A DNA stretch of 63,966 bases, filler included, from Candidatus Babelota bacterium (GTDB lineage: Bacteria > JAGOBX01): the NCBI GenBank assembly GCA_017999075.1. It is 10 parts of 10 records of this genome, joined end to end, with 100 filler letters (N's around TTAATTAATTAA, not from the genome) between each part and the next. Parts side by side here need not be neighbours in the genome. Positions count along the whole stretch, not along the records: positions 58,616 to 63,966 come from JAGOBX010000281.1; 9 more parts are not named here. One strand, 5' to 3'. The notes below the pieces were generated by a model. That model did no database searches. It had not been told where the DNA came from and was given only the letters and a program-made list of their open reading frames with translations. Made by a program: the position numbers and the translations under genes. Below are positions 6,467 to 63,771 of this stretch, in pieces. The first letter of the stretch is position 1. Every line of letters starts with the position of its first letter.

Positions 6467-6566
6467 NNNNNNNNNNNNNNNNNNNNNNNNNNNNNNNNNN
6501 NNNNNNNNNNTTAATTAATTAANNNNNNNNNNNNNNNNNNNNNNNNNNNNNNNNNNNNNNNNNNNN
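6467..6566. other. Artificial contig linker (N44-TTAATTAATTAA-N44); first of nine, others at 13025-13124, 19559-19658, 26084-26183, 32597-32696, 39082-39181, 45565-45664, 52047-52146, 58516-58615
   Basis: Identical 100-bp N spacers containing a six-frame stop; contig lengths fall steadily (6458, 6434, 6425, 6413, 6385, 6383, 6382, 6369 bp). Confidence 0.99.
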
Positions 6567-6640
6567 GTGTTACTGGAAGTTTTTTAATACTTTTTATACC
6601 CCGAATATCTTCAAATTAGTTTAACTCTATTTTATAGGAA

Positions 6641-7507
6641 TTATTTATCAAAGCATATTTTTTTATAATTACAGAAATTACATATCTTTTTATTTTTAAT
6701 CTTTGAAAATGTTTCAATATCATTTGATTCTGCCATCTGCATTTTTGAAATTGAAATACGTATATAATTACGGATATCATCTATCACTTTTTGAGTAATC
6801 TTAATTTCAGAAGAAAAAGTTTGATATAAATTTACCAAATAATATTTTACATCGTCTAAGCATGATATAAAATAATTTTTTTCACAAAACAAATATGAAA
6901 TTACAGCTCTTATCTCATCATTTTTACTAATATTCGTTTCAAATTTTTTAGAAGGCTTTCTTACTGCCCAATTGAAAATCATTGTTTCATCGCTGCTTAT
7001 ATAAATTAAATCCGCTTGTCCTTCAATCTGTTTTCCTGCCACTGTAACATAATCAACATTATGCGTTTCGCACGGGAATATGCAATTCAATAATTTTTTA
7101 TTTTTCAGCATCATATATGAATCCGATTTATAAAAATTTTCCAGTAAAGTATGCATTTCATAAAAAATTTCCGTATAATCAGTTTTTTCTCCAATACCAT
7201 AATAATTTTCAAAATTATCCATACGTTCTTTGTTAACTGCAACTTTAAAATTTTTCACGGCATCTCTCAAATAATACTCCAATCCTTTTTCTTCCTGAAA
7301 CATTAAATTTTTTAATATCTGATATATTGAATATTTTAAAATTTTTGACCTTATCAAAAACCTATTTTCGAGTTTTTTTAATTTCCATAAGTCTGAAATT
7401 TGTCCGGAATTTTCATTATAAGCAGCTATATATTGATAATAATATTTTCGTTTGCATTCATTAAAAATTTGATCGCGGGTTATTGACCATAAAAAATCCA
7501 TATACAT
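6641..7507 (-). CDS. PD-(D/E)XK nuclease superfamily protein (AddB C-terminal/Cas4-like), apparently degenerate active site
   Basis: N-terminal WSITRDQIFNECKRKYYYQY, GQADLI motif II, C-terminal CNFCNYKKIC (four-Cys cluster pattern); motif III reads IFNWAV instead of IIDYKT/IVDWKT. Confidence 0.75.
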   Translation of the reverse strand: MYMDFLWSITRDQIFNECKRKYYYQYIAAYNENSGQISDLWKLKKLENRFLIRSKILKYSIYQILKNLMFQEEKGLEYYLRDAVKNFKVAVNKERMDNFENYYGIGEKTDYTEIFYEMHTLLENFYKSDSYMMLKNKKLLNCIFPCETHNVDYVTVAGKQIEGQADLIYISSDETMIFNWAVRKPSKKFETNISKNDEIRAVISYLFCEKNYFISCLDDVKYYLVNLYQTFSSEIKITQKVIDDIRNYIRISISKMQMAESNDIETFSKIKNKKICNFCNYKKICFDK

Positions 7508-38600: not shown

Positions 38601-38997
38601 GTTATGGTTGTTTGATGCTCATCCTAAAACTGAAATATATGTTTCAACTAAAGAAGAATTCGATAAATTAGTTGGAGATATTCGGAAATCAGATGATTAT
38701 ATTTCAAATGATGAAAAAAGAATCATTTCATTTGAAACTGAAAAACGTATCCGTGATTTATATTATAAAACATCAGAACATTATAACAATTATTTTAATA
38801 ATTTGATTACAGATGGAAAAATATCCGCAGATATAATATGTATTTGCTCTCCTGAATCGGAAGTTAAGCCGGATTGGTCAAAATTTACAATGGGAAAATA
38901 TGAAATTTTGAATGGTGCGGGCAAACACGAAGAAATGATGCAGTCTGAATATATAGCACAAAATTGTTCGTTTTTGAATATGCCGGATGAAAATTGA
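32698..38997 (+). CDS. Non-ribosomal peptide synthetase, terminal part: A(partial)-T-E-C-A-T-TE; 5'-truncated
   Basis: A-domain cores YGPAE/YRTGD/QVKVRGFRIELGEIE; T domain FFELGGDSI; E domain HHLVIDGVSW, ETHGRD, RTIGWFT, PNNGIGY, FNYLG; C domain HHLIIDGW; second A domain YIIFTSGSTGEPKG; T domain FFELGGDSV; TE domain GYSAGG...GKHEEMM. Confidence 0.96.
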   Translation, partial: VVCEEFCKNKLIEHLKNKIMILSGGQALRGLYDSDLKIIDNYGPAECTVVSTAKTYNIENKSKNITIGKPINNALIYILDKYKCLQPIEISGEICIAGAGLARGYLNNEKLTAEKFIEWNGKRIYRTGDIGRWNENGEIEFLGRIDDQVKVRGFRIELGEIEMALSNHPLIRENIVLAKKLKDGENELIAYYTLKNQELADNRIGELTESENSNDLKKLQNNISKSGNLKLTVGEIREFLGKTLPLYMIPAYFIELEKMPLNSSSKIDRKNLPLPSEEGLIRIREYKNPETKSEKILVQILNEVLGVKKISVLDNFFELGGDSIKAIQVIARLNMKDFHIEIKDIFQSPVIKDLAQKLVKKKRKIEQIKTSGKSPLTPVQKWFFELEHGKKGHFNQSLMLESSERIDENIIKTVLGKIVEHHDALRMVYKKNDNEIIQEYKDEAEIYFEIMDVCKITDSKKIVEEHCQKIQSGINLETGPLMKCVLFRTEEKDLLLIVIHHLVIDGVSWRILLEDLNYGYSLALNKEEVKFPLKTDSFKKYAEELIKYSTTPLLLKELEYWQKMIDNSAHEFFNAVILLKNIKNETLVLEKELTEKILRSVHFAYNTKINDILLAALADAFHKSFGKENLLVELETHGRDEILRDINISRTIGWFTAMYPLILKNYDDISKLIKETKEVLRRVPNNGIGYWILKYLTPYEHTKSLQFDKLHPQVLFNYLGEMSSNEQSKSIFDFSQTGSGKSISSDFELRHPIEINAVTVDNKINFDIAYNPEIYSQQQIQLFFENYKTALSEIAEHCISRNYSEKTPSDYTIKNMSISDYDILKDKYCGNIEDIYPLTSLQEGMLYHYIADNAQSDMYFEQTTLTINEVLNIEKIEYAFNKIISRHKALRVRIAYNGLDAPKQVVLNNNYLNINYNNAKNETDIKQFIENYKVKDRTTKFNLENDLLLRVSVIETDVSQYVMILSFHHLIIDGWCNAIIFNEYQKIMAGKEEVLEPAIDYKLYIDWLQNRDYIAAEEFWREYLDGYDTPTKIGFIYDETKDNIFAEDSLELGEEETKKMMQFTSFNNITVNTLLNTAWGIVLAKYNFTSDAVFGTVQSGRPPEIKGIEKMMGLCINTVPVRIRINKNESNIELLRRIQKESILLQENGYLKLSRINFLSSLKNELFNHIIVFENYPFEINDNDKDTVSGKITDIDVFEKINYDFHITAHISDKFRINFSYSESYFTKQKIELLKTHLKNILNEFINNPSANIENISILSDYEKNIFLKFSNPYKVQNIRKTVVDFFESKVSENPDAIALLTVDKEFTYNYINSESNRLANYLITHMKVSPEEIIAIELPRSEKMIIAILGVLKAGCAYLPVSLNEPEPRKNRMIEMAKVRYSISENKQNNNNIETICFNEFQKFEQISNPTLEIKMNSLAYIIFTSGSTGEPKGVMIEHLNLSDYVQTFSSFFNIKNTDVVLQHLSYNFDASIEEIFPILTHGGKLALAPSLDDTTEFIDFVNKNKITVISTVPALSEIFNENVERLTSLRIFICGGDTLKYSSIDRIINYCDVYNTYGPTESTVCAAYFKIEKEYKNIPIGKPINNRKIIIVDRFDKECPAGVPGEILISGSGLARGYLNDVLLTSEKFIKLNNEIFYRTGDSARWMEDGNIEFLGRIDNQVKIRGFRIELCEIEAAVSKHPAVKDSVVVAKKLKGEEKELVAYYTLKIDESADNRIDELAVNENSEDLKNLQIRKSGNLKSAAVEIREFLTKFLPAYMVPAYFVELKKIPLTASGKIDKKNLPKPVESENCFVKNAETKNEMLLEEVWKKVFKMDGIGVNQDFFELGGDSVKLISIVAACRGIGLKVTVKDILENRTIERIVKNMAGEFSGLLQIHNEFGKKSLIAFPLIIGFGYANAAMAAYLKKHTLYTVDYKISDDLFDEYYNEIIRANVEKPYSLFGYSAGGNLAFEFAKYLEMRGEMIELLWLFDAHPKTEIYVSTKEEFDKLVGDIRKSDDYISNDEKRIISFETEKRIRDLYYKTSEHYNNYFNNLITDGKISADIICICSPESEVKPDWSKFTMGKYEILNGAGKHEEMMQSEYIAQNCSFLNMPDEN

Positions 38998-39449: not shown

Positions 39450-41312
39450 TCATCCAATAGGACATTTTCCTTTTATGAATTCGAAAATAGGACGAAATAT
39501 TTCGAAATATTTTGATTCAACTGTGGGAACAATATTTTGAGCAAAATTGACTTTTTGCTTATCACTAATAAATTTTATAAAATTATCTGTTCGAGTTATA
39601 TCTTCAATAAAATAATTCTCTAATCCTTGAACTCCATAAAATAACAATTCTATCGTTAATAAAGATTTGCCGCCGTATGTTCCTCCAGTATTACTATTAA
39701 TTACCTGTTTAGCAATCAATGAATTAGAAGGAACAGGTAATAACATTGAGTAGGAATTATAATTTTTATATTTTTTTGTTAAACATTTATATGGATCGCT
39801 TTGAATATCATCTCCTAATTGATTCCAATCGTTATACGCTTCATCAAAATCGAAAATAGAAAAAAATATTCTATCACGATAATTTTGATATAAGTCTGTA
39901 TCCTTCATCAGATTTCGTAAAAAATTTTTTGAAAATGCGTTTTGTATCTCGAATTTTCTTTTTTCCAAAGGATAAAGCTTGTTCCATGCGGTTTCAAATA
40001 TCATTTCATCAGAAACTCCTTCAGTAAACAAAATCGGCTGTGTTGTCTTTTTCAAGATTTTGTTAATGCACTTTATGATTTCATTTTCTGAATATGTCAT
40101 TAGACCGGCGGAGAGTGAAGAAATAATATCTTTTTTGTTTGCTGCGCCTGCTTCTGCAGCATAATTGCGTAATTCGAAATTTACTAATCGTTCCTGTTCT
40201 AAAGCTGCGATAGTTGAAGGGCTGTGAGTAGTTAACAATACATGATTTTTTCGCCGCGCCGGTTCGGAAATCATATTGGTTTGCTTAAGGAATTCAAATT
40301 GCCATTCCGGATGTAAGAATGAATCAGGTTCGTCCATTAGCGTCAGACAATTTCTATCCTGAAATGATTCTAATAATGAATATAAATAAATTGATTGGAA
40401 CTGACCATCGCTGAAATAATTAATGTCTTGCTGTTGATCATTTTGCAGAGTTACATTAAATTTGATGTCATCGATAATATCAATAATCTTAATTTCATTA
40501 AATAATTCTATTAGTTTATCAACAGAATCGGATTGAAATTCTTTTTTGAATTTTTTTATGCTTATAAAATATTTGTAATATGGTTTATTTACATTGGATA
40601 TATAACCGCTTAGTCGTAATTCGGGAACATCGCAAGTTGATAATCGCCGAAGGAATTCTCTTGCCTGTCCCTCTATTCCCCAAAAAAGAGTTTTATCATC
40701 AGCGCGATCAATTTTAAAAGTGCGCCTAACTATATACGGACGTTTTAATGTGATGATAAATTCTTGCTCAACATTTTGAATCCCAAGTTTTTCTTTAATA
40801 CCTTTAGCAATATTTTCATCAAAAGGTTGTGTAAGAAATATGGTTATAAGTAATTTTTTATATGCCCTGTCAAAATACATAAATCTATTGAAATCAACAT
40901 TTTTTCCGCCGCGAAAAAACCGTTTAATCATTGCCTGAAATTTTGAATTTGAATAATTCACATTTTCATTATGTCCGGAATAATAGATGAGTATGTTATC
41001 AGGCAGCGGTGTATCCGAGATACGTTTTCTCGCTGTTCCGTTAATTTTAAGAATATTATTTTTCCATTCGATTTCAGTAGATGCATTATTAATTTCAAAT
41101 TTAATTGTATATTCAAAACTAATAATCGGCCGAGCCCTTCTATTATTAAACTCATATAAATGCCGAAAAATCTCAATTAATGCTTCAAATAAATTTGATT
41201 TGCCTGTTCCATTTTTTCCGACAAAAACATCGATAAAACTATTTCCATCAAAATTTAAATTGAACTCTTTTAGATTTTTGTATCGACTTATATAAATTGT
41301 TTTTAATCTCAT
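39450..41312 (-). CDS. ABC/SMC-type ATPase fused to a TOPRIM-like domain (OLD-like), last gene of the type I RM operon
   Basis: YKNL, Walker A GKNGTGKS, signature FSDGQ, Walker B LMDEPD, H-loop TTHSP; C-terminal ILFTEGVSD and FDFD TOPRIM acidic motifs; ATGA overlap with hsdS. Confidence 0.8.
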   Translation of the reverse strand: MRLKTIYISRYKNLKEFNLNFDGNSFIDVFVGKNGTGKSNLFEALIEIFRHLYEFNNRRARPIISFEYTIKFEINNASTEIEWKNNILKINGTARKRISDTPLPDNILIYYSGHNENVNYSNSKFQAMIKRFFRGGKNVDFNRFMYFDRAYKKLLITIFLTQPFDENIAKGIKEKLGIQNVEQEFIITLKRPYIVRRTFKIDRADDKTLFWGIEGQAREFLRRLSTCDVPELRLSGYISNVNKPYYKYFISIKKFKKEFQSDSVDKLIELFNEIKIIDIIDDIKFNVTLQNDQQQDINYFSDGQFQSIYLYSLLESFQDRNCLTLMDEPDSFLHPEWQFEFLKQTNMISEPARRKNHVLLTTHSPSTIAALEQERLVNFELRNYAAEAGAANKKDIISSLSAGLMTYSENEIIKCINKILKKTTQPILFTEGVSDEMIFETAWNKLYPLEKRKFEIQNAFSKNFLRNLMKDTDLYQNYRDRIFFSIFDFDEAYNDWNQLGDDIQSDPYKCLTKKYKNYNSYSMLLPVPSNSLIAKQVINSNTGGTYGGKSLLTIELLFYGVQGLENYFIEDITRTDNFIKFISDKQKVNFAQNIVPTVESKYFEIFRPIFEFIKGKCPIG

Positions 41313-43024
41313 TTGTTTTGTATTTGCGCTAAAACAGCGTCGAATATTTTGATTTTTTTTTCTTCGCTTGATTTTATTTGTTTATCAAGCGTATCGCAAA
41401 GAGTCATAAGCCGCTCGATTTTGGTTACTATACGTTTTTGCTCGGGAAGAGGCGGAAGTGGAAATAAATAATTTCTTAAAAATCCTAGTGAAACAAAACT
41501 TTGTACTGCCCCAGAAGAGATTGCTTTCATTTTTTTTTGCGTATAAAAAAAATAATAGTAAACAAATTTTGTATTTGGCGTATTATCTCGATAATATTTA
41601 AAAAGAGCAATATTTTTTATTGAAAATTCATCATTGGTATTTACAATAACCGGATTTCCAATACTACCTATCATTGCAAAAAGAATATCACCTTTTTCAA
41701 CTTTAGATCGTTCTATTGTTTTTAAATGATCCTCTTTTGAAATAAATTTTATATCATCAAAACTAAGTTTACCTGTATATAAATTTTTACTTGTAATAAG
41801 CGGGTAACCGACTTGTACATATTTGGGAGTATCATGAGTTCCATCTCTAACATCTAAAGCATCGTTTAATCTTACCCATTCCCAGCCTTTTGGCAATTCG
41901 TATGGAATTTCATTTGGTTTAATTGGCGGCAGCGGTTTAGGTTCTTTAATTTTGCCTTCTTTAATCAGACGCTTTTTTTCTGATTCAATTTCTTTTAAGA
42001 GTTCGGATGCCGGCGGGTCATTTGGGTTCTGCGGCACAAGTTTGCCTTGCATTGCAATTTGGAGTATTGCTTTTTTCAATTCCAAAATATTTTCCGAAAT
42101 AGAATATAATTTTGAAAATTGCTTAGTAATAAATTGCCAGGATTTATTAAATTCATTTGGCTGTTTTGAATTTAAAAGCCGATTTAACGCAGAAGTATGA
42201 ACTGCTAATTGTTTTTGATTGCGTTCATTTTTCTGTTTTTCTAATGTATCACATAATGCCATTAGTTGATCAATTTTTGAAACGATACGTTTCTGCTCGG
42301 TGAAGGATGGAAAAGGAATTAAGAATTTAGCAATATTTGCCATACTTAAATTTGCTCGAGCATTATCAACTTGTTTAGAAAACATATATGATAGGCAAAT
42401 AGAACTATTTAAAAAATATAACAAATAATTTAAATCTGTATATTTGCCAATATATATCAACCTAATTAAACAAACTGCTTGATTTATATTTGCAATTTCA
42501 TCTAAATCGTAATATGCCACTCGACCAATAGAAGCGCCAACAATATTCATTAATATATCGAATTTTTGTAATATTGATCTCGGTTCTATTTCATTAAATT
42601 TGTATTCGACATATTTTTTATTATTAAATTTAAGTTTAAAATTATCTACATTTTCACTTGTTATAAATAAAATCCCATTTGATGAATCTGTATAATTTAT
42701 TCCTTGCCAATTTGGCGATGAACCTTTAGTAATTAAAGCAGAAATCTCCCCCAATCTCACCCACACCCAATTCTCCGGTAATTCATACGGTATTTCCTCA
42801 TTCTTTATCTGCGGCAGCGGTTCCTGTTTTTTGATTTTTCCTTCTTTTAGTAATCTTGATTTTTCAGCTTCGATTTCTTTTAATAGTTCTTTGGCAGGCT
42901 GGTCATTTTTATTTTGCGGCGCGAGTTTACCTTTCATAGCGAGCGATAAAATCAGCCCGCGCAGTTTTTTTATGCCGTCAGGCGTTTCAAGGGCTATATC
43001 AAAACAGCGCTGTAATGAATCCAT
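41309..43024 (-). CDS. hsdS: Type I restriction-modification specificity subunit
   Basis: Two EIPYELPxxWxWVRL-TRD-PxPxxxEQKRIV repeats and conserved LAMKGKL/IAMQGKLVPQ segments. Confidence 0.95.
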   Translation of the reverse strand: MDSLQRCFDIALETPDGIKKLRGLILSLAMKGKLAPQNKNDQPAKELLKEIEAEKSRLLKEGKIKKQEPLPQIKNEEIPYELPENWVWVRLGEISALITKGSSPNWQGINYTDSSNGILFITSENVDNFKLKFNNKKYVEYKFNEIEPRSILQKFDILMNIVGASIGRVAYYDLDEIANINQAVCLIRLIYIGKYTDLNYLLYFLNSSICLSYMFSKQVDNARANLSMANIAKFLIPFPSFTEQKRIVSKIDQLMALCDTLEKQKNERNQKQLAVHTSALNRLLNSKQPNEFNKSWQFITKQFSKLYSISENILELKKAILQIAMQGKLVPQNPNDPPASELLKEIESEKKRLIKEGKIKEPKPLPPIKPNEIPYELPKGWEWVRLNDALDVRDGTHDTPKYVQVGYPLITSKNLYTGKLSFDDIKFISKEDHLKTIERSKVEKGDILFAMIGSIGNPVIVNTNDEFSIKNIALFKYYRDNTPNTKFVYYYFFYTQKKMKAISSGAVQSFVSLGFLRNYLFPLPPLPEQKRIVTKIERLMTLCDTLDKQIKSSEEKKIKIFDAVLAQIQNK

Positions 43025-44472
43025 TACTTTCCTCCAAGCGCCTGCATCAATTCTTTTTTCAACAGCTCGCGTGTTGAAATAAGTTGTTTTGATAATTCTT
43101 CATATTCAGCCATCAGCGTTTCAGGGTCGCCGTATTCGATTTCAACAATATGCGGATTTTTGAAATCGAGATTATAATTTTTTTCTTCAATTTCTTTTGC
43201 AGTAACTTTCCAGGCATATTCATTTGTTTTCCGTTTATTCCACCATTTTTTTTCGCGTTCAAATTCTTCAATAGTCAAGGGATTACGGCGCGAATAAGAT
43301 TTATAACCTTCAGGATATGGATGCTCAAAAAACCATACGAATTTAGTAGGTCCGCATTTATCGAAAAATAAAATATTAGTGTTAATGTTTGTATATGGAC
43401 TGAATACGCTTTTCGGCAGACGAACGATTGTATGCAGATTAAAATCCTCAAGCAGTTCCTTTTTCAAAGTTGTTTTCACGCCCTCGCCAAACAGAAAACC
43501 GTCAGGCAGGACAACAGCGGCGCGGCCTGTATCCTGTTTCAATCGATGCATAATAAGCACCATAAATAAATCCGCGGTTTCGCGCGTTCTGTATTTCAAG
43601 GGAAAATTATTTTCAATGCCGTCTTCTTCCATACCGCCAAAAGGCGGATTTGTAATCACAATATCAACCCTGTCCTTTGGTCCGTAATCTTTGAGCGGTC
43701 TGCTCAATGTATTATCGTGTTGAATATTATTTGGCACATCAATTCCGTGAAGCATCATATTTGTAACTGCAAGCATATGCGGCAGCGGCTTTTTTTCAAC
43801 GCCAAAAATTGCAGCGGTTAGAATATCGTTGTCATTTCCTGTTTTAATCTGTTTTTTCAAATGTTCAATTGTATTTGTTAAAAAACCGCCGGTTCCGCAG
43901 GCAGGGTCAAGCACAGATTCGCCTAATTGCGGGTTAATGATATCAACCATAAATTGCGTGACTGCGCGCGGTGTATAGTATTCTCCGGCATTGCCGGCAG
44001 ACTGCAGGTCAGCGAGTATTTTTTCATAAATATCATTGAAAAGATGACGGTCATCTGAAGAATTAAAATCAAGATCATTCTGGATTGTATTTATAACCTG
44101 CCTGAGCAGAATCCCTGATTTCATATAATTATATGCGTCTTCAAATATACTGCCTACAACTTTACCCTGCGCCGATACTCCGGCTGAAGTTGCCAGTCTT
44201 TTTAATGCTGGAAAAAGATCGTTATTGACAAAATCAATCAGTTCATCTCCAGTCATACCTTCAGCATTTGCAGCCCAATTTGTCCATTGAAACCGCGATT
44301 GCAGCGGCGATTTATAATTATTGACAGTAATCTTCCATTCTTTTTCTTTATCATCGAATATTTTTAAAAACAAAAGCCAGACCATCTGGCTTATACGCTG
44401 GGCGTCGCCGTCAACGCCGACATCCTTTCGCATTATATCCTGAATAGTTTTAATCAATGTGTTAATTGGCAT
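43024..44472 (-). CDS. hsdM: Type I restriction-modification m6A methyltransferase subunit
   Basis: IQDIMRKDVGVDGDAQR, GEYYTPR, DPACGTGG and TNPPFG. Confidence 0.96.
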   Translation of the reverse strand: MPINTLIKTIQDIMRKDVGVDGDAQRISQMVWLLFLKIFDDKEKEWKITVNNYKSPLQSRFQWTNWAANAEGMTGDELIDFVNNDLFPALKRLATSAGVSAQGKVVGSIFEDAYNYMKSGILLRQVINTIQNDLDFNSSDDRHLFNDIYEKILADLQSAGNAGEYYTPRAVTQFMVDIINPQLGESVLDPACGTGGFLTNTIEHLKKQIKTGNDNDILTAAIFGVEKKPLPHMLAVTNMMLHGIDVPNNIQHDNTLSRPLKDYGPKDRVDIVITNPPFGGMEEDGIENNFPLKYRTRETADLFMVLIMHRLKQDTGRAAVVLPDGFLFGEGVKTTLKKELLEDFNLHTIVRLPKSVFSPYTNINTNILFFDKCGPTKFVWFFEHPYPEGYKSYSRRNPLTIEEFEREKKWWNKRKTNEYAWKVTAKEIEEKNYNLDFKNPHIVEIEYGDPETLMAEYEELSKQLISTRELLKKELMQALGGK

Positions 44473-44497
44473 TTATTATTCCCCGTTTTTTTTGAAA

Positions 44498-45564
44498 TTA
44501 TGCGCTGTATAGCGCTTTTTCCAAATCTAAAATTGCCTGATTATAGTTATCCAGACCGCCAAAATTTTTTATTATTTCAATAGGAGTTCCGAAGCCGGTA
44601 AATGGAGTAATCGTTAATATTTTGGTTTCTTCAATATGCTCAATTCCTTCGTCGGCATATTTATCAAGCAGCGCATCCAATACTTTCCGCGCAGGTTCGC
44701 TGTATTTAGTGAAATAATTTTTTTTCTTAACATTTTCAGCGCGTTCTTTACGCGTCAAAGGCGGCATATCCCAGACAATATGGCAGATAATATCAAAAGG
44801 GTCAAGAATTTTCCCGATTTCTTCTGATAATGCTTCAAAGAAAACGCCTTGATTGGCAAGTTCTTCTATTATCGCCCGCTTTTTCTCTGTATTATTCCAT
44901 CTTGTTAAAAAATCATTAAGCGTAGAATATTCTTTGTTAAGCGTTTTCTTAGTGTAATCTTTTAGCGATTCTGTTATCAATCTTCCGTTTGCATCAAAAT
45001 ATTGAACGCGCTCGGAAACCACAGAAACCTCAACATTATTAACATAATATTTTCTGATTTTATTTTCAGATTCAAAAGGATTTTCATTCGTAAAATTATT
45101 TTCCTGAATTCCGGTTTCAGTTTGATTGTTATTATCTTCAGGATTTATATTTTCAGAATTATTGTTTTGATTGTTTTGATTATCAATATTATTCAAATCA
45201 GTTTCGTCCGGCGGCACAGGCGATTCGCCTTGTTTTGGAACATATATCATAACAGGGGCGCCGTCAAAGTCAGGGTCTGCAAATAATTCAGTGGCTTTTT
45301 TAAAATCAATTATAGTAAAATAAAATTTATTGTAATCTTCATTAATTCTTGTGCCTCTGCCGATTATTTGTTTGAATTCAGTCATTGATTGAATCCGCTG
45401 GTCAAGCACTATCAATTTACAGGTTTGCGCATCTACACCGGTAGTCATCAATTTTGAAGTAGTCGCAATAACAGGGTAGCGCGATTCAGGAAAAATAAAA
45501 TTATCGAGCTCAATTTTACCTTCTTCATTATCGCCGGTAATACGCATAACATATTTTGAATTCT
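44498..45564 (-). CDS. hsdR: Type I restriction enzyme R subunit (EcoEI/EcoAI-like C-terminus), 5'-truncated
   Basis: IATTSKLMTTGVDAQTCKLIVLD, SMTEFKQIIGRGTR, FADPDFDG, DPFDIICH and PLTRKERA. Confidence 0.93.
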
Positions 45565-54633: not shown

Positions 54634-55869
54634 TTACAAAAAATCAAGAGAATCAGCACTGGCATTGTTTTTGGTATCGTTATTATTTCCTGAATTCTGT
54701 GCAGAAATATTTATGTCCTTGCAGCGTTGGGCAGTAAGTTTTTTTTCTTTTTCAAGAGGAATCAAGAGATCAAGGAGTTTTAATTCATCGCCGCTTGCAG
54801 AACTCATATACGCCCATTTTACAGCGCGGGTTACAGCTACAAATAATAAACGCTTCTGATACTCAATATCAGGAACCTTTTCGGTAAAACTTTTTTCATA
54901 TAAAAACGGCATTAAAACCGTATCAAAAGATAATCCCTTAACGCTGTGATATGATAGGATTTTAATTCTGTTTCCGCTGAAATCTATATCCTTGCCGGAT
55001 TCTACAGGAAATCCTTCTTTCTGTAAAAGTGTTTTCAATTCGTCAATCATAGAATTTCGAAGAATGATTACCCCTATTTTTTCGCCTTTTGTTAATCTTA
55101 TTTTTAAAATTGATTTCAACCGTTCCAATTCATCGGCGTAATCCTTGGCAATATACAGCAGAGGCAATTCCTTTTCTGCCTGCGGAATTCTGACCTGATT
55201 AAGATATTGTGTTTTTTCCATCTGGTCATCTATTAGTTCAGCAGCAAGAGATGCAATATACGGACAGCATCGGTATGCTTCAAGCAAGGATATGTTTGAA
55301 CGCCGTAACCCAAGCTTATCGAGTATCTCCTGTTCATTCATACCTGTATCGAAAATCTGCTGTTTATAATCCATACATACTGTAATATGCTTGGCAATTT
55401 TTGTAAACAATGAAAATGCGTGAGTATCCAAGTCCTGCCCCTCGTCAACTAATACAGCATCATATATATTCTTAATATTATTGCCTTGAATTGATTCTGA
55501 AACTGCTTTTCTTATAGCAGCGAAATCAGGACAGTTTTCGCCTTCCCTAATCGGAAGATTCGGCGAAATATAACGCAAATAATTAGAATAGCACCACGAA
55601 TCAAAAGTTGTAACGCAGTTCAGCGGTAAATCAAGTAATTCAAGCGCTGACTTGATATAAAACTTTAATGTGTTAGTGAAAACAAAAATATGAAGCCTTT
55701 TCCTTGAAATATTGTATGCGTCAATAAGATGTCTTGCCCGATGAAGCAGAATCTGCGTCTTCCCTGAACCCGGCGGTCCTAATATAACGCGATGTGTGTT
55801 CATAGGCATTTCTATTGCACGTATCTGTTCGTTCGATAATTCATTTCGCGGCAGCAGCCATACGCTCAT
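54634..55869 (-). CDS. Compact superfamily I (UvrD-like) helicase
   Basis: Q motif LSNEQ, GPPGSGKT, VFTNTL, TTFDSW, VLVDEGQD, DYKQQIF, EAYR, HSVKGLSFD and LFVAVTRA; only 411 aa. Confidence 0.88.
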   Translation of the reverse strand: MSVWLLPRNELSNEQIRAIEMPMNTHRVILGPPGSGKTQILLHRARHLIDAYNISRKRLHIFVFTNTLKFYIKSALELLDLPLNCVTTFDSWCYSNYLRYISPNLPIREGENCPDFAAIRKAVSESIQGNNIKNIYDAVLVDEGQDLDTHAFSLFTKIAKHITVCMDYKQQIFDTGMNEQEILDKLGLRRSNISLLEAYRCCPYIASLAAELIDDQMEKTQYLNQVRIPQAEKELPLLYIAKDYADELERLKSILKIRLTKGEKIGVIILRNSMIDELKTLLQKEGFPVESGKDIDFSGNRIKILSYHSVKGLSFDTVLMPFLYEKSFTEKVPDIEYQKRLLFVAVTRAVKWAYMSSASGDELKLLDLLIPLEKEKKLTAQRCKDINISAQNSGNNNDTKNNASADSLDFL

Positions 55870-55870
55870 A

Positions 55871-58270
55871 TCATTTTTCCTTATTTTTCATTGCCGGCAG
55901 TTTACCATATTCAATGTTCATTTTATCATTTGCCGCAGTATTTCGTCTTATAAGTTCAATATTTACCTTTTCAATTTCTGCTGTATTGCCTGCCATTGAA
56001 AGGGCTATTTTATACCAGCCGAGCTCCCAATTGCTCTGCAATGGAATTTCAGAAAATGTTTCAAGTGCTTTCTGCAAATATTTATCTTTATTTGAAATGC
56101 GCGATGCGTTTTTAGATTCAAGCATAGCAATATATGTGTAATATGCCGGCTGCGGGTCTTTATCAATAACTTGATACATTATATCCATTGCTTCATTAAT
56201 TTTGTTCTGCTTCTCTTTTGATAATGCAAGATTGAATAACGGGCCAAGCCAGTCTGAAAATTTTGCCGCTTCTCTATAATATTTTTCTTCATTTCTGTAA
56301 TCGCCCAGTTCGCCTGAAATAATCCCCATTGTATTAAGCATACTGACGTCAGGATTGCTTAATCTGCGTAACGCCTGGCGATAGTATTCAATAGATTTTT
56401 CTTTCTGGCCTAAATCCCTGTATAATTCAGCAATTTCAATTATTTTATCTGCAATTTTATTTTTTTGAAATTTATTAGAACGCAACACTTCTTCAAGTTC
56501 CATAATTTTTATGCGTTTTTTATTGGGATTTACAATATTGGTCAGCGGATTTTCAATTGATAAAACAAATTCTTGTTTTTCAAATCCATTATCTATTTTT
56601 AAATTCATTTCCAATGCCTGATTTTCATTATATCTGTATTCAAGAAAAATCGGTTCACCTTGAACAATCGGCACATCAATAGGCCATTTGGCTGAAATTA
56701 ATTTTCTATTGTCGGAAGTTGCAGCAATTTCAATCAGTAATTCGAAATTATCAATAAGATTTGTTTCCGGCACCGCAAGATTTGAATATTTAATAAATGA
56801 ATTATCCTGCGGATACGGCAGAGGAGCATTTTGCGGTATCAGTTCTGCAAGCCCTGATTCTGTCCGGATTGATATTCCATCAAAGCAAACCGGTTTTATA
56901 AGACTTTCTCCGAATAATTTTAAAAACAACGAATGATATGCCGCGCCGCGTGCTACTGCTGTCTGTATATCATCGCTGTTTGCATAAGTAAGAATTTGAG
57001 AGTTTATAAAATGTTTTTTTACTGCATCAACAATCTGTGGTATAAGACTGCTGCCTCCCACAAGCAGGCAGTAATCAATTTTTGACGAGTTCAGTCCGCA
57101 TCTGTCGAGCGCATCCGTTATAGGAGCAAAAATAGAACAGGACATTCTGTATTCAGTTTCTTTGACATACAAAAAATCAGTATCTAAAAACTGCTCCAAT
57201 ACTTTCTCAAATTCTTCTGCAGACATTTTAGGAGAAGTCAAAGTTTTCTGTTCACCGAACAATTTACAGGTATAAACTCCAGGCTGAACTTTAATAATTT
57301 TTGATTTATCTGAATCATTATATTTATTAAATCCAATCAGCCGGGATATTTCTCTGCAAAGCCCTATTTTCAATTGTTCTGCAACATTCATAAAAGCAGG
57401 ACCAATAATATTTTTCTTCTCATTGAATGTTAAACCGTATGAATTCAAATTATTTTCTATCAAGAATTGCGGCAGCAGAATTTCATATAAAATCGCAGCA
57501 TCAATATCTCCTCCGCCAAGCCTGTGATATCTCGAAACAGATAACGGCATTATTTTTATATGTTTGTCTTCGGTTTCTTTCTGTATCTGGAAAACTGCAA
57601 CATCGCAGGTGCCTCCGCCGAAATCAAAGACAAGCAGATTTGATTTCCCTCTGATTTGCGAAAAAAGTTTATTATCATATCCTATAATATAGTCAAGAAA
57701 TGCCGCGACAGGTTCGTCAAGCAGATTGCCGCCCATTGTTTTTATCCCTGCAATTTCTGCGGCTTTTAAAGTATCCCGACGCTGCGCCAACTGAAATGAA
57801 GCGGGGACTGTTATGACTGTATTATTAATATTATGGCTGGACTGTTTTGTTTCCTGAAGCATATATTTTAAAAGTTTGCCGGCAATTTCCGCAGGAGATT
57901 TAAAACCTTCCTGAGCCATATGATAAGTTCGGTTTGTACCGATTTCGTTTTTACATTCATAGAATAAATTTTTATTCTGAACAATACCATATTCTGATGA
58001 TAAAGCCCTTAAACGTTTTGCGCCTTCGCCTATGAAAATTTTATTCTGATATTCGGTAATCATTGACGGCAATAATATGTTGCTATACATTCCTTCAAGT
58101 GTTTCCTGCTGTATTTCAACGCATTCTGCAGCAGGAATTTCGGACATTCCATTTTTCCAGCAGATTTCAGCGACTGTTGAATTAGTTGTTCCCAAATCAA
58201 TTCCAACAACGAGCAACTCCTTAATATCAGTTTTAATTTTGTTTTTATCGAATAATTCAAATATGTTCAT
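55871..58270 (-). CDS. Atypical Hsp70-family protein with C-terminal TPR repeats
   Basis: GIDLGTTNS, ITVPASF...QRRDTLKAA, LLDEPVAA, VFDFGGGTCD, LGGGDID and LVGGSSLIP; C-terminal TPR-like helices (IAELYRDLGQKEKSIEYYRQAL, MGIISGELGDYRNEEKYYREA). Start at ATG 58270 is inferred. Confidence 0.88.
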   Translation of the reverse strand: MNIFELFDKNKIKTDIKELLVVGIDLGTTNSTVAEICWKNGMSEIPAAECVEIQQETLEGMYSNILLPSMITEYQNKIFIGEGAKRLRALSSEYGIVQNKNLFYECKNEIGTNRTYHMAQEGFKSPAEIAGKLLKYMLQETKQSSHNINNTVITVPASFQLAQRRDTLKAAEIAGIKTMGGNLLDEPVAAFLDYIIGYDNKLFSQIRGKSNLLVFDFGGGTCDVAVFQIQKETEDKHIKIMPLSVSRYHRLGGGDIDAAILYEILLPQFLIENNLNSYGLTFNEKKNIIGPAFMNVAEQLKIGLCREISRLIGFNKYNDSDKSKIIKVQPGVYTCKLFGEQKTLTSPKMSAEEFEKVLEQFLDTDFLYVKETEYRMSCSIFAPITDALDRCGLNSSKIDYCLLVGGSSLIPQIVDAVKKHFINSQILTYANSDDIQTAVARGAAYHSLFLKLFGESLIKPVCFDGISIRTESGLAELIPQNAPLPYPQDNSFIKYSNLAVPETNLIDNFELLIEIAATSDNRKLISAKWPIDVPIVQGEPIFLEYRYNENQALEMNLKIDNGFEKQEFVLSIENPLTNIVNPNKKRIKIMELEEVLRSNKFQKNKIADKIIEIAELYRDLGQKEKSIEYYRQALRRLSNPDVSMLNTMGIISGELGDYRNEEKYYREAAKFSDWLGPLFNLALSKEKQNKINEAMDIMYQVIDKDPQPAYYTYIAMLESKNASRISNKDKYLQKALETFSEIPLQSNWELGWYKIALSMAGNTAEIEKVNIELIRRNTAANDKMNIEYGKLPAMKNKEK

Positions 58271-58324
58271 AATATGGCATCCTGTTTTCAAATATTTTTT
58301 ATTAATTCCGAATAAAAAATAAAT

Positions 58325-58377
58325 GTTTTGTGAAGTTTTATAAAACATTAATAATGTTTATTAAAACTTCTAAAAAC
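58325..58377. promoter_or_regulatory. Long imperfect palindrome upstream of the Hsp70-TPR gene (operator candidate)
   Basis: gaagttttataaaacatta-a-taatgtttattaaaacttc (58332-58370), with weaker complementary flanks. Confidence 0.55.
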
Positions 58378-58735: not shown

Positions 58736-59299
58736 TCATATTTTTTTTCTTAATAATTCAAAAGCTTCCGTTCTTATTCTTGAATCGGATCTGAATACTC
58801 CCCGCAGCGCTGAAGTGGCGGTGATAGTTCCGGGTTTTTTTATGCCTCTTATTGTCATGCATAAATGTTCTGCTTCTATGATAACTAAAACACCTTTTGG
58901 TTTTAACGACTCCATAAGAGTATTTGCAATCTGAGTAGTAAGCCGTTCCTGCAATTGAGGTCTTTTTGAAATTATGTCAATAACTCTTGCTAATTTACTT
59001 ATGCCGGTTATAACTGAATCATTTGGAATATAAGCTACTGTAGCAGTTCCGATGAATGGCAGCAAATGATGCTCGCAGAACGAAAAAAACGGAATGTCTT
59101 TAACCATTACAAGTTCTTCATATTTTTCTTCTTTGAAAATTTTAATAACATCTGCCGGATTTTTTTTCAGGCCGCTGAAAACTTCCTGATACATTTTTGC
59201 CACGCGTTCAGGAGTTCCTGATAATCCTTCTCTGGTGATGTCTTCGTCAATTCCTTCAAGAATTAATTTAACGCCTTGTTTTATTTTTTCAATATCCAT
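58736..59299 (-). CDS. folE: GTP cyclohydrolase I
   Basis: [34 protein letters not shown] and [11 protein letters not shown]. Confidence 0.97.
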
Positions 59300-59347
59300 A
59301 ACTCTTTCAAAAAAATAATTAAATTTTATAAATAAAATATATACTTA

Positions 59348-61720
59348 TTATTCTCTTTTTTTATCGTTAACTTTTGTAACAAGCCCATCCAGAATTTTTG
59401 CAGCTTGTTCTTCTTTAGTGGGCTCTATAAACAAAATTTTTGTTCTACGGTTTTTTGCTCTGCCTTCTGCAGTGGCATTATCTCCGATCGGGTCCGAATC
59501 GCCTTTTCCTATAGCAGCAACAATTGACGAATTTATATTACATTCGTTTATTAAAAATTGTTTAACTGTATCAGCCCGTTTTTGAGATAATGTTTTATTA
59601 GCTTCAATTGCCCCTAAACTGTCAGTATATCCTATAATTTCAATTCGCGGTTGTTTTTTTTCGTATTTTTTGGGATCAGACTCGATTTTTTCTTTTATTA
59701 TTTTTCCGATTTTTAATAATGCCGATTTTGCATCTTCGGTTAAAATTGATTCAAGGGAATTGAACATCATTCCTGCTATTGTAAATGTAGAAATGTTATC
59801 TGCAGTCATCATTCCTATAGGAATTCCATTGCTTCTTTCTGATTGCAGCGCATTTACTGCTTCAATGTTTTCTCCTCTTATTAGCGCTCTTACTTCGTCT
59901 CCTTCGATAGTTTCTTTTAAAAGAAGTATCTCGGCTATTTTATCTAAGGTTTCTCTGTTTTCCCTTAATATTTTTTCTGCTAAGGAATATTGTTCGAATA
60001 CAATTCTTTTGATTTCGGAATCAAGATCTATTCCTGTATTTTCACTGTGATCTTTTTGATAGGATAATTCGCGCCCGAGAAACGGGTGTTCTTCGCGTTT
60101 GCCGAATTGTACAGGACCTATTTTATCACTCATCCCCCATTCGCAAACCATTTTACGCGCAAGATGAGTTGCGCGTTCTATATCATTTGCGGCTCCTGTT
60201 GTTGGAGCTGAAAATACAAGGTTTTCTGCAGCTCTGCCTCCCATAAAAACAGCTATTTTCCCAAGTAAAATTTCTTTTGAATGACTGTGTTTTTCTTCTT
60301 CAGGAAGCTGAATGGTTGCGCCGAGCGCTCTTCCTCGCGGGATAATAGTTATTTTATGTAAAGGATCAGTTCCAGGTATCATTTCTGCAACAAGCGCGTG
60401 ACCCGCTTCATGATAAGCAGTTTCTCTTTTTTCTTTTTCTTTAATAACAAGACTTCTGCGTGCAGGGCCCATTAAAACTTTGTCTTTTGCATCTTCAAGT
60501 TCTGCCATTGTTACTACATCGAGATTTTTTCTTGCGGCAAGCAAGGCGGCTTCATTCATAAGATTTTCCAAATCAGCTCCTGAAAAACCCGGACATCCTC
60601 TGGCTATAACTTCAAGATCAATGTGTATATCAAGAGGAATTTTTTTTGAATGAACTTTCAATATACCTACTCTGCCTTTTAAATCAGGATTATCAACTAT
60701 GACATTTCTGTCAAATCTTCCCGGACGCAGCAAAGCCGGATCTAATACGTCAGGTCTGTTTGTGGCAGCGATTAAAATGACTCCTTCGTTTGTTTCAAAT
60801 CCATCCATTTCGACGAGCAGTGCGTTTAATGTCTGCTCTCTTTCGTCGTGGCCTCCGCCTAATCCTGCTCCGCGCTGCCTTCCTACTGCATCAATTTCAT
60901 CGATGAATATTATGCAAGGAGCGTGTTTTTTCCCCTGCTCAAATAAATCTCGAACCCTGCTTGCACCTACGCCAACAAACATTTCTACAAAATCAGAACC
61001 TGATATGCTTAAAAACGGAACTCCTGCTTCGCCTGCTACAGCGCGGGCAAGCAATGTTTTTCCTGTTCCTGGAGGGCCCACAACCAAAACTCCTTTTGGA
61101 ATTCTGCCTCCCAATCTCTGAAACTTTTTAGGATCTTTTAGAAAATCTATTATTTCTTCAAGTTCTTTTTTAGCTTCTTCACATCCGGCTACATCTGAAA
61201 ATGTTACCTTGGGAAGATTGCTTATAAAAAGTTTAGCTCTGCTTTTTCCGAATGAGAATGCGCCTTTTCCGCCGCCTATGATATTTCTGTAAAATATGAA
61301 CCACAGAAATAATATAAATAAGATCATAGGACCCCAGCTGAATAGAAAATTACTCCAAAAACCGGCTTCTTCCTGATGCTGATATTTTACAATTTTAATA
61401 TTTTTTTTTGATAAATCTTCAATAAATTTATAATCAATTTGAGGTATAACGCATTTGAATTTGTGGAAACCTGTTATGTCTTTGTATTCTCCAACAAGAA
61501 TTTTTTCCTGAACCGTGACTTCTGTTATAGTTATTTTGTTTGAATCGTCAAGTTTGTTTTCTTGTGATAAATCGTGTTTTCGGACAAGATCTACAAATTC
61601 GGAATAACTTAATTCCGTTATTTTTTTCCCTTCAGGCTGTTGATTAAAAGATAAAAATAAGGCTGTTATAACTAATCCCAGAAGTAACCAAAACGCAAGG
61701 TTTTTTGATGAATCTTTCAT
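59348..61720 (-). CDS. ftsH: ATP-dependent zinc metalloprotease FtsH with fused C-terminal OmpA-like domain
   Basis: Two N-terminal TM helices, [15 protein letters not shown] pore loop, [25 protein letters not shown] and HEAGH; C-terminal IEIIGYTD...NKTLSQKRA...GKG...P...N...GRAKNRR. Confidence 0.96.
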
Positions 61721-61989: not shown

Positions 61990-63771
61990 ATGGATTCTTC
62001 TAAAATTAGAAATTTTTGTATAATTGCGCATATTGATCACGGAAAATCGACGCTTGCAGACAGATTGATTGAATTGACAAAAACTGTCGATAGAAGACGT
62101 ATGCGCGAACAGCTTCTTGATGATATGGACCTCGAACGTGAAAGAGGTATAACTATTAAAGCAAAAAGCATTAGAATGACTTATAAAGATTATCAATTTA
62201 ATTTAATAGATACTCCAGGTCATGTTGATTTTACTTATGAAGTTTCACGGAGTTTGTCTGCTTGTGAAGGAGCTCTGCTTGTTGTAGATGCGACTCAGGG
62301 AGTAGAAGCTCAGACTATAGCTAATTTGTATCTTGCGCTTGATAATAATCTTGAAATACTGCCTATTATTAATAAAGTTGATATGGTAAATGCTGATGTT
62401 GATAAAACAATTAATCAGTTAATAGAACTCGGGCTTGATATTGAAAATGTAGTTTGCATAAGCGCAAAAACAGGAGAAAATGTAGAAAAAATCTTGGATT
62501 TAATTGTTGAAAAAGTTCCTTCTCCAAAAGGTGATGAAGAAAAAGGTTTTCTAAAATGCTTGATTTTTGATTCTCATTATGATTCATATCAAGGAGTAAT
62601 TCTTAATGTCAGAGTAAAAAGCGGTGTCATTAAAAAAGGAATGAAAATAAAATTAATGGCTACTGCAAATATTTATACTGTTACTGAAGTTGGTGTTATG
62701 AATCCTGATATGAAATCAGTGGATTCATTAAGTGAAGGGGAAGTAGGATATTGTATAGCAGGAATTAAATTTCTTAATGAAGTGAAAATAGGAGATACTC
62801 TTACAGAATCCGCTGCTCCGTGTACTAAAGCCTTACCTGGATTCAAAGAAATAAGGCCTGTTGTTTTTTGCGGATTTTATCCGATTAATGCCGATGATTT
62901 TGAATTATTGAGAGATTCTCTTGCAAAATTGCAATTGAACGATTCAGCATTTAATTATGTTCCTGAAACTTCTGCTGCGCTTGGTTTTGGCTTTAAATGC
63001 GGATTTCTCGGATTGCTTCATCTTGAAATTATTGCTGAAAGATTGCATAGAGAATTCGATATGTCTATAGTAATGACTACTCCTGGAGTTTTATATAAAA
63101 TTGAAACTACTGAAGGTAATTTGATTGAGATTGATTCTGCATATAAACTGCCTGATCCTTCTAAATATATTAAAATTTACGAACCTTATGTTAAAGGTTC
63201 AATTATTGTACTTGATGAATTTGTTGGCAATGTAATGAAACTTTGCGAAGAATACCGGGCGATTTTCGGAAAAATGGAATATATAGGAACAACTAAAGTA
63301 ATACTTAATTATGAATTGCCTTTAGGAGAAATTATTATAGATTTTTATGACAGATTAAAATCTTGCACTAAAGGTTATGGTTCATTTGATTATGAATTGT
63401 CGGATTATAAAGTTGGCGACCTTGTAAAACTCGGAATTTTAATAAATAATGAAAATGTAGATGCTTTATCTATTATTGTGCATAAGGATAAAGCGTATGA
63501 AAAAGGAAAAAATGTTGTAGAAAAACTTAAAGAACTTATACCGCGTCAACAATTTTCCATTCCTATACAGGCTGCTATAGGTTCAAGAATAATAGCGCGT
63601 GAAACAATTAAAGCTTTTAGAAAAGATGTAACTTCAAGGTGTTACGGAGGGGATATAACAAGAAAACGCAAACTTCTTGAACGCCAGAAAGAAGGTAAGA
63701 AGAAAATGAAACAAATCGGTAACGTTGATATCCCAAAAGATGCTTTTTTAGCCGCATTAAGGATAAAATAA
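61990..63771 (+). CDS. lepA: Elongation factor 4 (LepA)
   Basis: IRNFCIIAHIDHGKSTLADR, ERERGITIK, DTPGHVDF, GFLGLLH and CYGGDITRKRKLL. Confidence 0.98.
   Translation: MDSSKIRNFCIIAHIDHGKSTLADRLIELTKTVDRRRMREQLLDDMDLERERGITIKAKSIRMTYKDYQFNLIDTPGHVDFTYEVSRSLSACEGALLVVDATQGVEAQTIANLYLALDNNLEILPIINKVDMVNADVDKTINQLIELGLDIENVVCISAKTGENVEKILDLIVEKVPSPKGDEEKGFLKCLIFDSHYDSYQGVILNVRVKSGVIKKGMKIKLMATANIYTVTEVGVMNPDMKSVDSLSEGEVGYCIAGIKFLNEVKIGDTLTESAAPCTKALPGFKEIRPVVFCGFYPINADDFELLRDSLAKLQLNDSAFNYVPETSAALGFGFKCGFLGLLHLEIIAERLHREFDMSIVMTTPGVLYKIETTEGNLIEIDSAYKLPDPSKYIKIYEPYVKGSIIVLDEFVGNVMKLCEEYRAIFGKMEYIGTTKVILNYELPLGEIIIDFYDRLKSCTKGYGSFDYELSDYKVGDLVKLGILINNENVDALSIIVHKDKAYEKGKNVVEKLKELIPRQQFSIPIQAAIGSRIIARETIKAFRKDVTSRCYGGDITRKRKLLERQKEGKKKMKQIGNVDIPKDAFLAALRIK

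Follow-up and report, generated by a model that had tools for sequence, protein, structure and literature searches.

The stretch of DNA analyzed here, called the window, comprises 63,966 nucleotides (nt) joined from ten records of the genome of a Candidatus Babelota bacterium (GCA_017999075.1), a member of a deep lineage without cultured strains, and near its end it encodes an FtsH, a quality-control protease of the membrane, with an OmpA-like domain at its C-terminus. The open reading frame (ORF) at 59348..61720 on the minus strand is a complete ftsH-ompA-like coding sequence of 790 amino acids (aa) plus stop, reading in a single frame from FtsH into a Pfam OmpA domain at residues 652-758. 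Unlike canonical FtsH of the E. coli type, the protein has ~180 extra C-terminal residues beyond the plain protease, and these make up a folded OmpA-like domain. This is a genuine domain fusion, fixed anciently, in which the FtsH C-terminus leads through a disordered linker of ~20-25 residues into the folded OmpA-like domain and an extra C-terminal helix. That the fusion is real and conserved is close to certain.

The FtsH part has the organization typical of its family. As in canonical FtsH, two N-terminal transmembrane helices flank the periplasmic FtsH_ext domain; next come an AAA+ module, in which Walker A, Walker B and an FVG pore loop are all present, and an M41 domain whose HEXXH zinc protease motif has the form HEAGH. 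Helix 1 (~residues 5-27, 61640..61708; this and all other features of the fusion lie on the minus strand) reaches a Kyte-Doolittle 19-residue mean of up to 2.16, and helix 2 (~residues 121-151, 61268..61360), after which comes a Lys/Arg-rich stretch, a mean of up to 2.25. FtsH_ext, residues 9-111 (61388..61696), matches PF06480 with E 3.9e-6 and 27.5 bits against a cut-off of 25.5. The AAA+ ATPase module, residues 211-342 (60695..61090; PF00004, E 1.2e-46), contains Walker A GPPGTGKT at 215-222, the pore loop MFVG at 247-250, Walker B DEID at 274-277 and, at residues 320-338, the second region of homology, [19 protein letters not shown]; most of the motif residues are invariant in all seven fused proteins described below. 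The AAA lid (AAA_lid_3, residues 367-409, 60494..60622; PF17862, E 2.8e-14) precedes the Peptidase_M41 domain, residues 425-612 (59885..60448), which spans profile positions 2-190 of 191 of PF01434 (E 1.9e-70) and holds HEAGH at residues 437-441 (60398-60412). The fusion is 60-63% identical to FtsH proteins with Nitrospirae and Geobacter names over ~78% of its length, and its FtsH part is complete and apparently active. A preliminary description of the locus had already seen a complete FtsH, with two transmembrane helices, AAA+ and HEAGH, running in frame into an OmpA domain at ~59790-59420, and the Pfam domains and the two Kyte-Doolittle peaks agree with it on both counts.

Beyond residue 612 lies a flexible linker (~residues 613-631, 59828..59884), with AlphaFold2 predicted local distance difference test (pLDDT) values below 50 and with a sequence and length that vary among relatives. 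The OmpA-like fold that follows (~residues 632-765, 59426..59827), delimited by Pfam, AlphaFold2 and Foldseek, consists of an N-terminal β-hairpin and then a β/α core. Its Pfam span, residues 652-758 (59447-59767), matches PF00691 over the entire profile (1-98 of 98; E 1.4e-16, 61.1 bits against a cut-off of 27.2). The C-terminal helix, residues 766-790 (59351..59425), carries a DGLV(S/T)K-type end motif that is common to four of the seven fused proteins; P0354 has a variant of it, and P0355 and P0356 have an acidic tail instead. The AlphaFold2 model, made for residues 606-790 from a 33-row alignment, has a mean pLDDT of 81.4, with most of the core at about 90 or more: residues 606-631 are disordered, ~635-648 form the β-hairpin, ~662-765 the usual helix/strand core (block means ~84-97), and 769-789 (model residues 164-184) the extra helix. 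Foldseek gave 128 matches with E <= 0.001, the closest at E 2e-13 to 1e-9 with template-modeling (TM) scores to the target of ~0.7-0.87. The best is PA0833 (6jfw, E 2.1e-13, TM-score 0.81), followed by OprF (5u1h), MotB, the Acinetobacter baumannii OmpA-like domain (AbOmpA; 3td3/3td5), TssL/TagL and YfiB, and the top matches are all OmpA-like domains. By sequence, the best solved relatives are the OprF C-terminal domain (5u1h, E 6.6e-15), YiaD, PA0833 and AbOmpA, the last as 3td3 plus its diaminopimelate (DAP) and pentapeptide complexes. The C-terminal domain is thus, as modeled, a standard OmpA-like fold, with PF00691 above its curated threshold, a β/α sandwich and the conserved set of DAP-contacting residues (Asp/Leu/Arg/Arg) that is shared by PA0833, OprF-C, YiaD, AbOmpA, Pal and MotB-C. 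It differs from known OmpA-like domains in having Lys at 739 and 761, the N-terminal β-hairpin, the extra C-terminal helix and, in one branch of the fused clade, an insert of ~55 residues. Complex prediction for M41 (421-612) and the OmpA-like part (636-790) gave scores of 0.01 and 0.00, which speak neither for nor against docking of the two. No promoter stood out for a separate OmpA product: the one consensus match inside the domain region (59725-59697, 9/12) is within shuffle expectation, and it sits downstream of Met651/652.

How widespread is this architecture? With the last 176 residues as query, 89 proteins scored E <= 0.001, and FtsH domains were present in P0002 only, which is 92% identical overall. 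A search of representatives with the C-terminal 185 residues found 49,745 matches with E <= 0.001, of which five of the 150 listed were read; one protein, P0098, is an N-truncated FtsH fragment that matches the C-terminal query end to end at 45% identity. When a profile of three C-termini was run against longer proteins, PF01434 was found in three of the best 120 of 1086 matches (E <= 1e-10), namely P0002, P0098 and P0252. A whole-protein search among proteins of near length found FtsH domains together with PF00691 in six of the best 120 of 8000 scored (P0002, P0354, P0252, P0355, P0356 and P0098); the remaining 114 listed matches are plain FtsH with 59-63% identity, the named ones from Nitrospirae/Nitrospiria, Geobacter and similar. 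P0095 (792 aa) and P0473 (786 aa), both full-length, came from cluster look-ups. Including the window there are therefore seven distinct fused proteins (window, P0095, P0473, P0252, P0354, P0355 and P0356), and on Pfam rescoring (E <= 0.001) OmpA, M41 and AAA are present in all of them and FtsH_ext in six, because P0252 is N-truncated. Identity to the window in the FtsH core (190-612) is 97% for P0095, 89% for P0473, 85% for P0252, 86% for P0354, 72% for P0355 and 70% for P0356; in the OmpA-like domain (641-765) it is 83%, 48%, 54%, 57%, 41% and 39%, respectively. The domain is absent from the 114 listed plain FtsH proteins, and no fused form occurs among the 80 loci kept from genomes sampled one per GTDB species. 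In the ESM Atlas (clusters of at least 50 members) only plain FtsH clusters were found, with scores of 0.89 or less. Among the matches listed from searches over billions of proteins, the fused architecture is seen only in this small clade.

Phylogenetic analysis suggests a single origin. A tree was built with IQ-TREE in its quick setting from 67 rows, comprising the seven fused proteins, 38 plain FtsH proteins (every third of the 114) and 22 of the 80 genome loci spanning phyla, over 601 FtsH columns; columns filled in less than half of the rows were dropped, which removed the OmpA part. The seven fused rows lie together on one side of a branch with a Shimodaira-Hasegawa-like approximate likelihood ratio (SH-aLRT) support of 99, and one state change explains the fusion on the tree, whereas none of 500 label shuffles does as well. 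The clade consists of two deep branches, P0355 and P0356 versus the other five, separated by a path of ~1.3 changes per column. P0355 and P0356 have the ~55-residue insert, which is Lys/Glu-rich and lies within the domain, after its first helix and before its second strand, and their acidic C-terminal tails are long and of low complexity. The sister group is mixed (Fibrobacterota, Gemmatimonadota, Zixibacteria, KSB1, Bacteroidota and Ignavibacteriota), with a support of 94 and many long branches.

A second, independently assembled copy of the locus came from a scan of metagenome contigs, which gave one locus, L081. It contains an intact fusion ORF of 792 aa, in the same gene order as the window, with lepA divergent upstream, then ftsH-ompA, then folE downstream. 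A hidden Markov model derived from the alignment and run against all ORFs of at least 50 aa found no OmpA-like ORF in the window or L081 besides the fusion. Between the two loci, synonymous sites are saturated (synonymous divergence, dS, ~1.8-2.8 or not computable), and nonsynonymous divergence (dN) is 0.019 in AAA, 0.042 in M41, 0.21 in the linker and 0.112 in the OmpA part. Low dN with saturated dS indicates that the OmpA-like domain is under purifying selection, looser than that on the FtsH core. The preliminary description had raised the possibility of a chimeric assembly at the junction. A 1544-nt Logan contig from run X1 covers 59322-60865, across the M41-OmpA junction, with 0 differences, and a 1272-nt contig from run X2, belonging to a different study, covers 59300-59839 with 3 differences and ends in the linker; runs X3 and X5 cover the stretch only partially. 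The sequence occurs in runs from wastewater, activated-sludge and digester metagenomes, X1 and X2 being backed by long near-identical pieces, and no RNA run is among those listed as containing it.

On which side of the membrane is the OmpA-like domain located? The Kyte-Doolittle scan (19-residue window, transmembrane mark 1.6) identifies only two transmembrane-like stretches in the 790-aa protein, ~5-27 and ~121-151. There is no third helix after residue 600, where the maximum is 1.07, the level of buried AAA strands. No transmembrane helix or signal sequence is found between M41 and the OmpA-like domain in any of the seven fused proteins; their maximum after M41 is 1.46, in the tail of P0354. 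A third helix was therefore rejected, since none of the seven reaches 1.6 after M41, and the preliminary description had been correct in seeing no hydrophobic helix between protease and domain and in anticipating this topology. Unlike known OmpA-like domains, this one follows a cytoplasmic protease, and the signal peptide, lipobox, β-barrel or transmembrane anchor that places family members outside the cytoplasm is absent ahead of it. Because the AAA+ and protease modules need cytoplasmic ATP, a positive stretch follows helix 2 and there is no third helix, the OmpA-like domain is very probably cytoplasmic.

The residues that contact ligand in the OmpA family (Asp700, Leu/Ile711, Arg715 and Arg758) are retained in the fused clade, as read from the alignments. 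The minus-strand translation of 59576-59632, [19 protein letters not shown], holds the GYTD...KR motif, in which Asp700 (codon 59621-59623) and Arg715 (codon 59576-59578) correspond to the Asp and Arg in the HTD...RA motif that AbOmpA and PA0833 share. Both are invariant in the seven proteins, as the preliminary description would lead one to expect from its remark that the DAP-binding Asp and Arg are kept. Arg758 is invariant as well, and position 711, which corresponds to Pal Leu82 judged by its spacing from the Asp, is Leu or Ile throughout. The invariant residues of the domain are I671, R692, I693, E694, G697, D700, S701, G703, R715 and A716, and further K720, K739, D741, N748, G753, R754, N757, R758, K761 and I762. 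These residues in AbOmpA, Asp271 and Arg286, are reported to bind diaminopimelate (PMC5974059), and Pal Asp71 and Leu82 are reported to contact the m-DAP of a soluble precursor (PMC3080404). That Pal forms a complex with soluble UDP-MurNAc-pentapeptide, as stated in the preliminary description, is in print for the Haemophilus influenzae protein (PMC7391070). It is an even bet that the domain binds a DAP-type ligand.

The best overall explanation, to which we would give a probability of approximately 40%, is that the domain senses DAP-containing wall precursors in the cytoplasm and tunes FtsH accordingly. Six OmpA-like pockets per FtsH hexamer would be flexibly tethered in the cytoplasm below the protease ring, and each would bind a soluble molecule containing meso-DAP, with UDP-MurNAc-tri- or pentapeptide, recycled tripeptide and free DAP as candidate ligands. 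Occupancy of the pockets could alter the activity of FtsH, its choice of substrate or adaptor, or its location, and regulated proteolysis would thereby be coupled to the supply of cell-wall precursors. Sensing of a cytoplasmic DAP ligand with control of envelope-enzyme proteolysis, as proposed in the preliminary description, is no more than compatible with the data. That the proteins whose proteolysis is regulated are those of envelope synthesis is a tentative further step. Equally doubtful is a one-polypeptide checkpoint, in which the six pockets would read the pool of DAP precursors and directly gate the AAA+ protease that sets the levels of envelope-synthesis enzymes; if it exists, it would be unprecedented on two counts, as a peptidoglycan-binding OmpA fold at work in the cytoplasm and as a protease with a precursor receptor of its own. 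Several observations weigh against a sensor. Judged by FtsH structures, the OmpA-like domain would lie at the end of the protease ring opposite substrate entry, and it is difficult to see how it could deliver substrates directly. The residue equivalent to Pal Asp37, in the β1-α1 loop, varies among the seven proteins as N, E or S. K739 and K761 are clade-specific and replace residues typical of the OmpA family: NRRVE is present in four of the five aligned solved homologues (the fifth alignment ends earlier), and the fused clade has NRR-x-K, with K761 in place of Glu, so that the surroundings of the pocket may have changed. The same conserved residues may also maintain the fold, and they are buried in MotB crystals (PMC3080404); their conservation is therefore no proof of ligand binding.

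This last point leads to a different view of the domain, in which it is a ligand-free protein-protein module that pairs or stacks FtsH hexamers or docks an adaptor or substrate, its residues being kept for the sake of the fold. OmpA-like domains are often dimeric, PA0833 being a dimer in solution (PMC5974059), the extra C-terminal helix with its DGLV(S/T)K-type end in four of the seven proteins, and a variant in a fifth, resembles an interaction element, and the invariant, clade-specific K720, K739 and K761 lie outside the family consensus. The end motif is nevertheless absent from the P0355/P0356 branch, the Asp/Arg pair is invariant down to 39% domain identity, which is more than expected from the fold alone, and some family members, Tp0624 for example, have a divergent pocket on an intact fold. 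We consider such a module unlikely, although it is the strongest competitor of the sensor. Less probable still is that the pocket now serves a different anionic cytoplasmic ligand, for example a nucleotide-sugar, an inner-leaflet phospholipid head group or nucleic acid, and that the domain localizes or regulates FtsH without any link to peptidoglycan. The invariant clade-specific lysines, including K761 at the usual Glu position, would suit this, as would a domain that is basic in six of the seven proteins (isoelectric point, pI, 8.1-9.1, versus ~5.9-6.2 for the FtsH core), but the P0355 domain has a pI of 6.1, low-GC genomes are rich in lysine in any case, and the DAP-contacting residues are all kept.

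An extracytoplasmic domain bound to the sacculus is very improbable, and it would need an unrecognized membrane crossing, self-cleavage and export, or an unusual FtsH topology. It is true that the characterized OmpA-like domains among the matches listed are, by title, all periplasmic or outer-membrane-linked, and that the stretch 635-661 is mildly hydrophobic (Kyte-Doolittle 1.03-1.07). That stretch is modeled as the hairpin and first strand of the domain itself (pLDDT ~77-91) and so is not a membrane helix; no window after M41 attains the transmembrane mark in any fused protein; and AAA+ and M41 must be cytoplasmic, with FtsH_ext between the transmembrane helices as in standard FtsH. Smaller again is the prospect of an artefact, in which two separate genes, ftsH and an ompA-like one downstream, would have been brought together by chimeric assembly or by an error in sequencing; it can practically be dismissed. 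The window sequence is derived from a metagenome-assembled genome, and X1, the best run, is possibly the source sample, so its contig carries little independent weight. Two NCBI entries, P0093 (139 aa) and P0094 (133 aa), consist of the C-terminal part only, which likewise counts against a fused protein. With P0101 they form a set of 133-150 aa entries that contain only the C-terminal domain of fused FtsH, two of them named 'OmpA family protein [bacterium]', and all three are probably contig-edge or gene-call fragments that mask the architecture in annotation. Against an artefact stand the in-frame fusion in seven distinct proteins of one clade, which come from several sources (NCBI, ENA, JGI and Logan), the intact ORF in the L081 DNA, the junction-spanning contig with 0 differences, and a domain that lacks its own signal peptide or start context and is under purifying selection; an assembly chimera was accordingly rejected.

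Both constituent families are well known; new are their combination and the placing of an OmpA-like fold on this side of the membrane. The preliminary description knew of no earlier account of the architecture, and word-based full-text searches of the open literature, without supplements, likewise found no paper on a fusion of FtsH with an OmpA-like or peptidoglycan-binding domain or on a cytoplasmic OmpA-like domain. A known parallel is the Gloeobacter-type PsaB (7f4v chain aB; E 2.5e-6, chain residues 787-864), which also has a C-terminal OmpA-like extension on a polytopic or anchored inner-membrane protein. The C-terminus of PsaB is on the periplasmic/lumenal side, so that its OmpA-like domain can reach the wall, unlike that of the fusion, which by FtsH topology is at a cytoplasmic C-terminus. 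The known ways in which bacteria match proteolysis and outer-membrane synthesis to the supply of wall precursors depend on separate adaptor proteins, such as LapB and MurA-LpxC. If the domain is a sensor, the fusion would follow the logic of the LapB/YciM-FtsH-LpxC and MurA-LpxC couplings, except that the putative sensor is part of the protease polypeptide. In those systems proteolysis or enzyme activity is reportedly tied to the balance of wall and outer-membrane precursors (PMC9995270, PMC11046580, PMC13477621). No lpxC or lapB was seen in the DNA examined, all of it partial genome sequence. An FtsH whose cytoplasmic end bears a fold that binds wall ligands, retained across deep divergence, is a compact candidate for such coupling that can be tested directly, and a sensor function would give the OmpA-like fold a cytoplasmic role. 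Even without it, the fused clade shows a fold under selection on the 'wrong' side of the membrane, which needs explanation.

Another odd OmpA-containing protein was encountered in a different organism. In P0023 (656 aa), a complete succinyl-CoA synthetase β subunit is linked to an OmpA domain through an Ala/Pro-rich spacer that includes a hydrophobic helix. The protein was set aside as a second 'cytoplasmic' case because the helix and the Pro/Ala-rich spacer precede the OmpA part, and it is either a gene-call fusion or another unusual OmpA architecture.

The fusion gene is flanked by folE and lepA. The folE gene, encoding GTP cyclohydrolase I (58736..59299, minus strand; PF01227, E 5.7e-73), begins 48 nt downstream of the fusion, and lepA (61990..63771, plus strand) is the divergent upstream neighbor; both arrangements are kept in L081. 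The preliminary description regarded ftsH-folE as a familiar context, and this does not hold generally: tblastn with the window FolE found folE beside ftsH in none of the 80 unfused loci (flanks of up to 4 kb, some cut by contig ends), and adjoining ftsH only in the fused L081. In L081 (8889-12355, plus strand), the genes after ftsH-ompA are, in order, folE, folP (Pterin_bind), one for a CdaA-type diadenylate cyclase (DAC and CdaA_N) and one of the YbbR/CdaR type. The next ORF, of 510 aa, has no Pfam match and so is not a recognizable glmM. Elsewhere, ftsH-folP-glmM and cdaA-cdaR-glmM are conserved clusters linked to wall-precursor supply. The L081 locus merges the ftsH-folP and cdaA-cdaR neighborhoods, which by analogy is a weak hint of a link to wall-precursor homeostasis.

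Downstream of folE in the window, a 386-nt spacer of ~16% GC is followed by two genes that are missing at the corresponding position in L081. The first (55871-58348, minus strand) encodes a protein of 825 aa that begins with an Hsp70/actin-like ATPase part and has tetratricopeptide (TPR) repeats toward its C-terminus, and the second (54634-55869, minus strand), after a 1-nt gap, a short UvrD-like helicase of 411 aa. The pair looks like an inserted two-gene module and is possibly a defence system.

Elsewhere the window encodes flagellin, a CheA-CheW-REC hybrid, sigma-54, a YkuD-type L,D-transpeptidase, FtsY and glycogen phosphorylase, and from its gene content the bacterium is taken to be motile, free-living and walled. 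Scans of the window for Rfam families and tRNAs found none. A type I restriction-modification cluster (39450-45547, minus strand) contains HsdM (482 aa) and HsdS (571 aa) with two target-recognition domains; a 349-aa ORF of the cluster matches EcoEI_R_C only, and a 620-aa AAA_15/AAA_21 ATPase adjoins. At 5460-7507 (minus strand) there is a GyrB/ParE-like ORF of 326 aa that comprises only the C-terminal half (the end of DNA_gyraseB, Toprim and GyrB_C). Upstream of it, a 288-aa ORF matches no Pfam family at 1e-5, an A subunit of 631 aa adjoins, and the region may hold the B subunit of a type II topoisomerase in split or divergent form. At 32740-38997 (plus strand) lies the gene of a non-ribosomal peptide synthetase of 2085 aa, in which condensation and AMP-binding stretches occur twice each, together with PP-binding domains and a thioesterase at the end. 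The GC content of the window is ~0.3-0.4.

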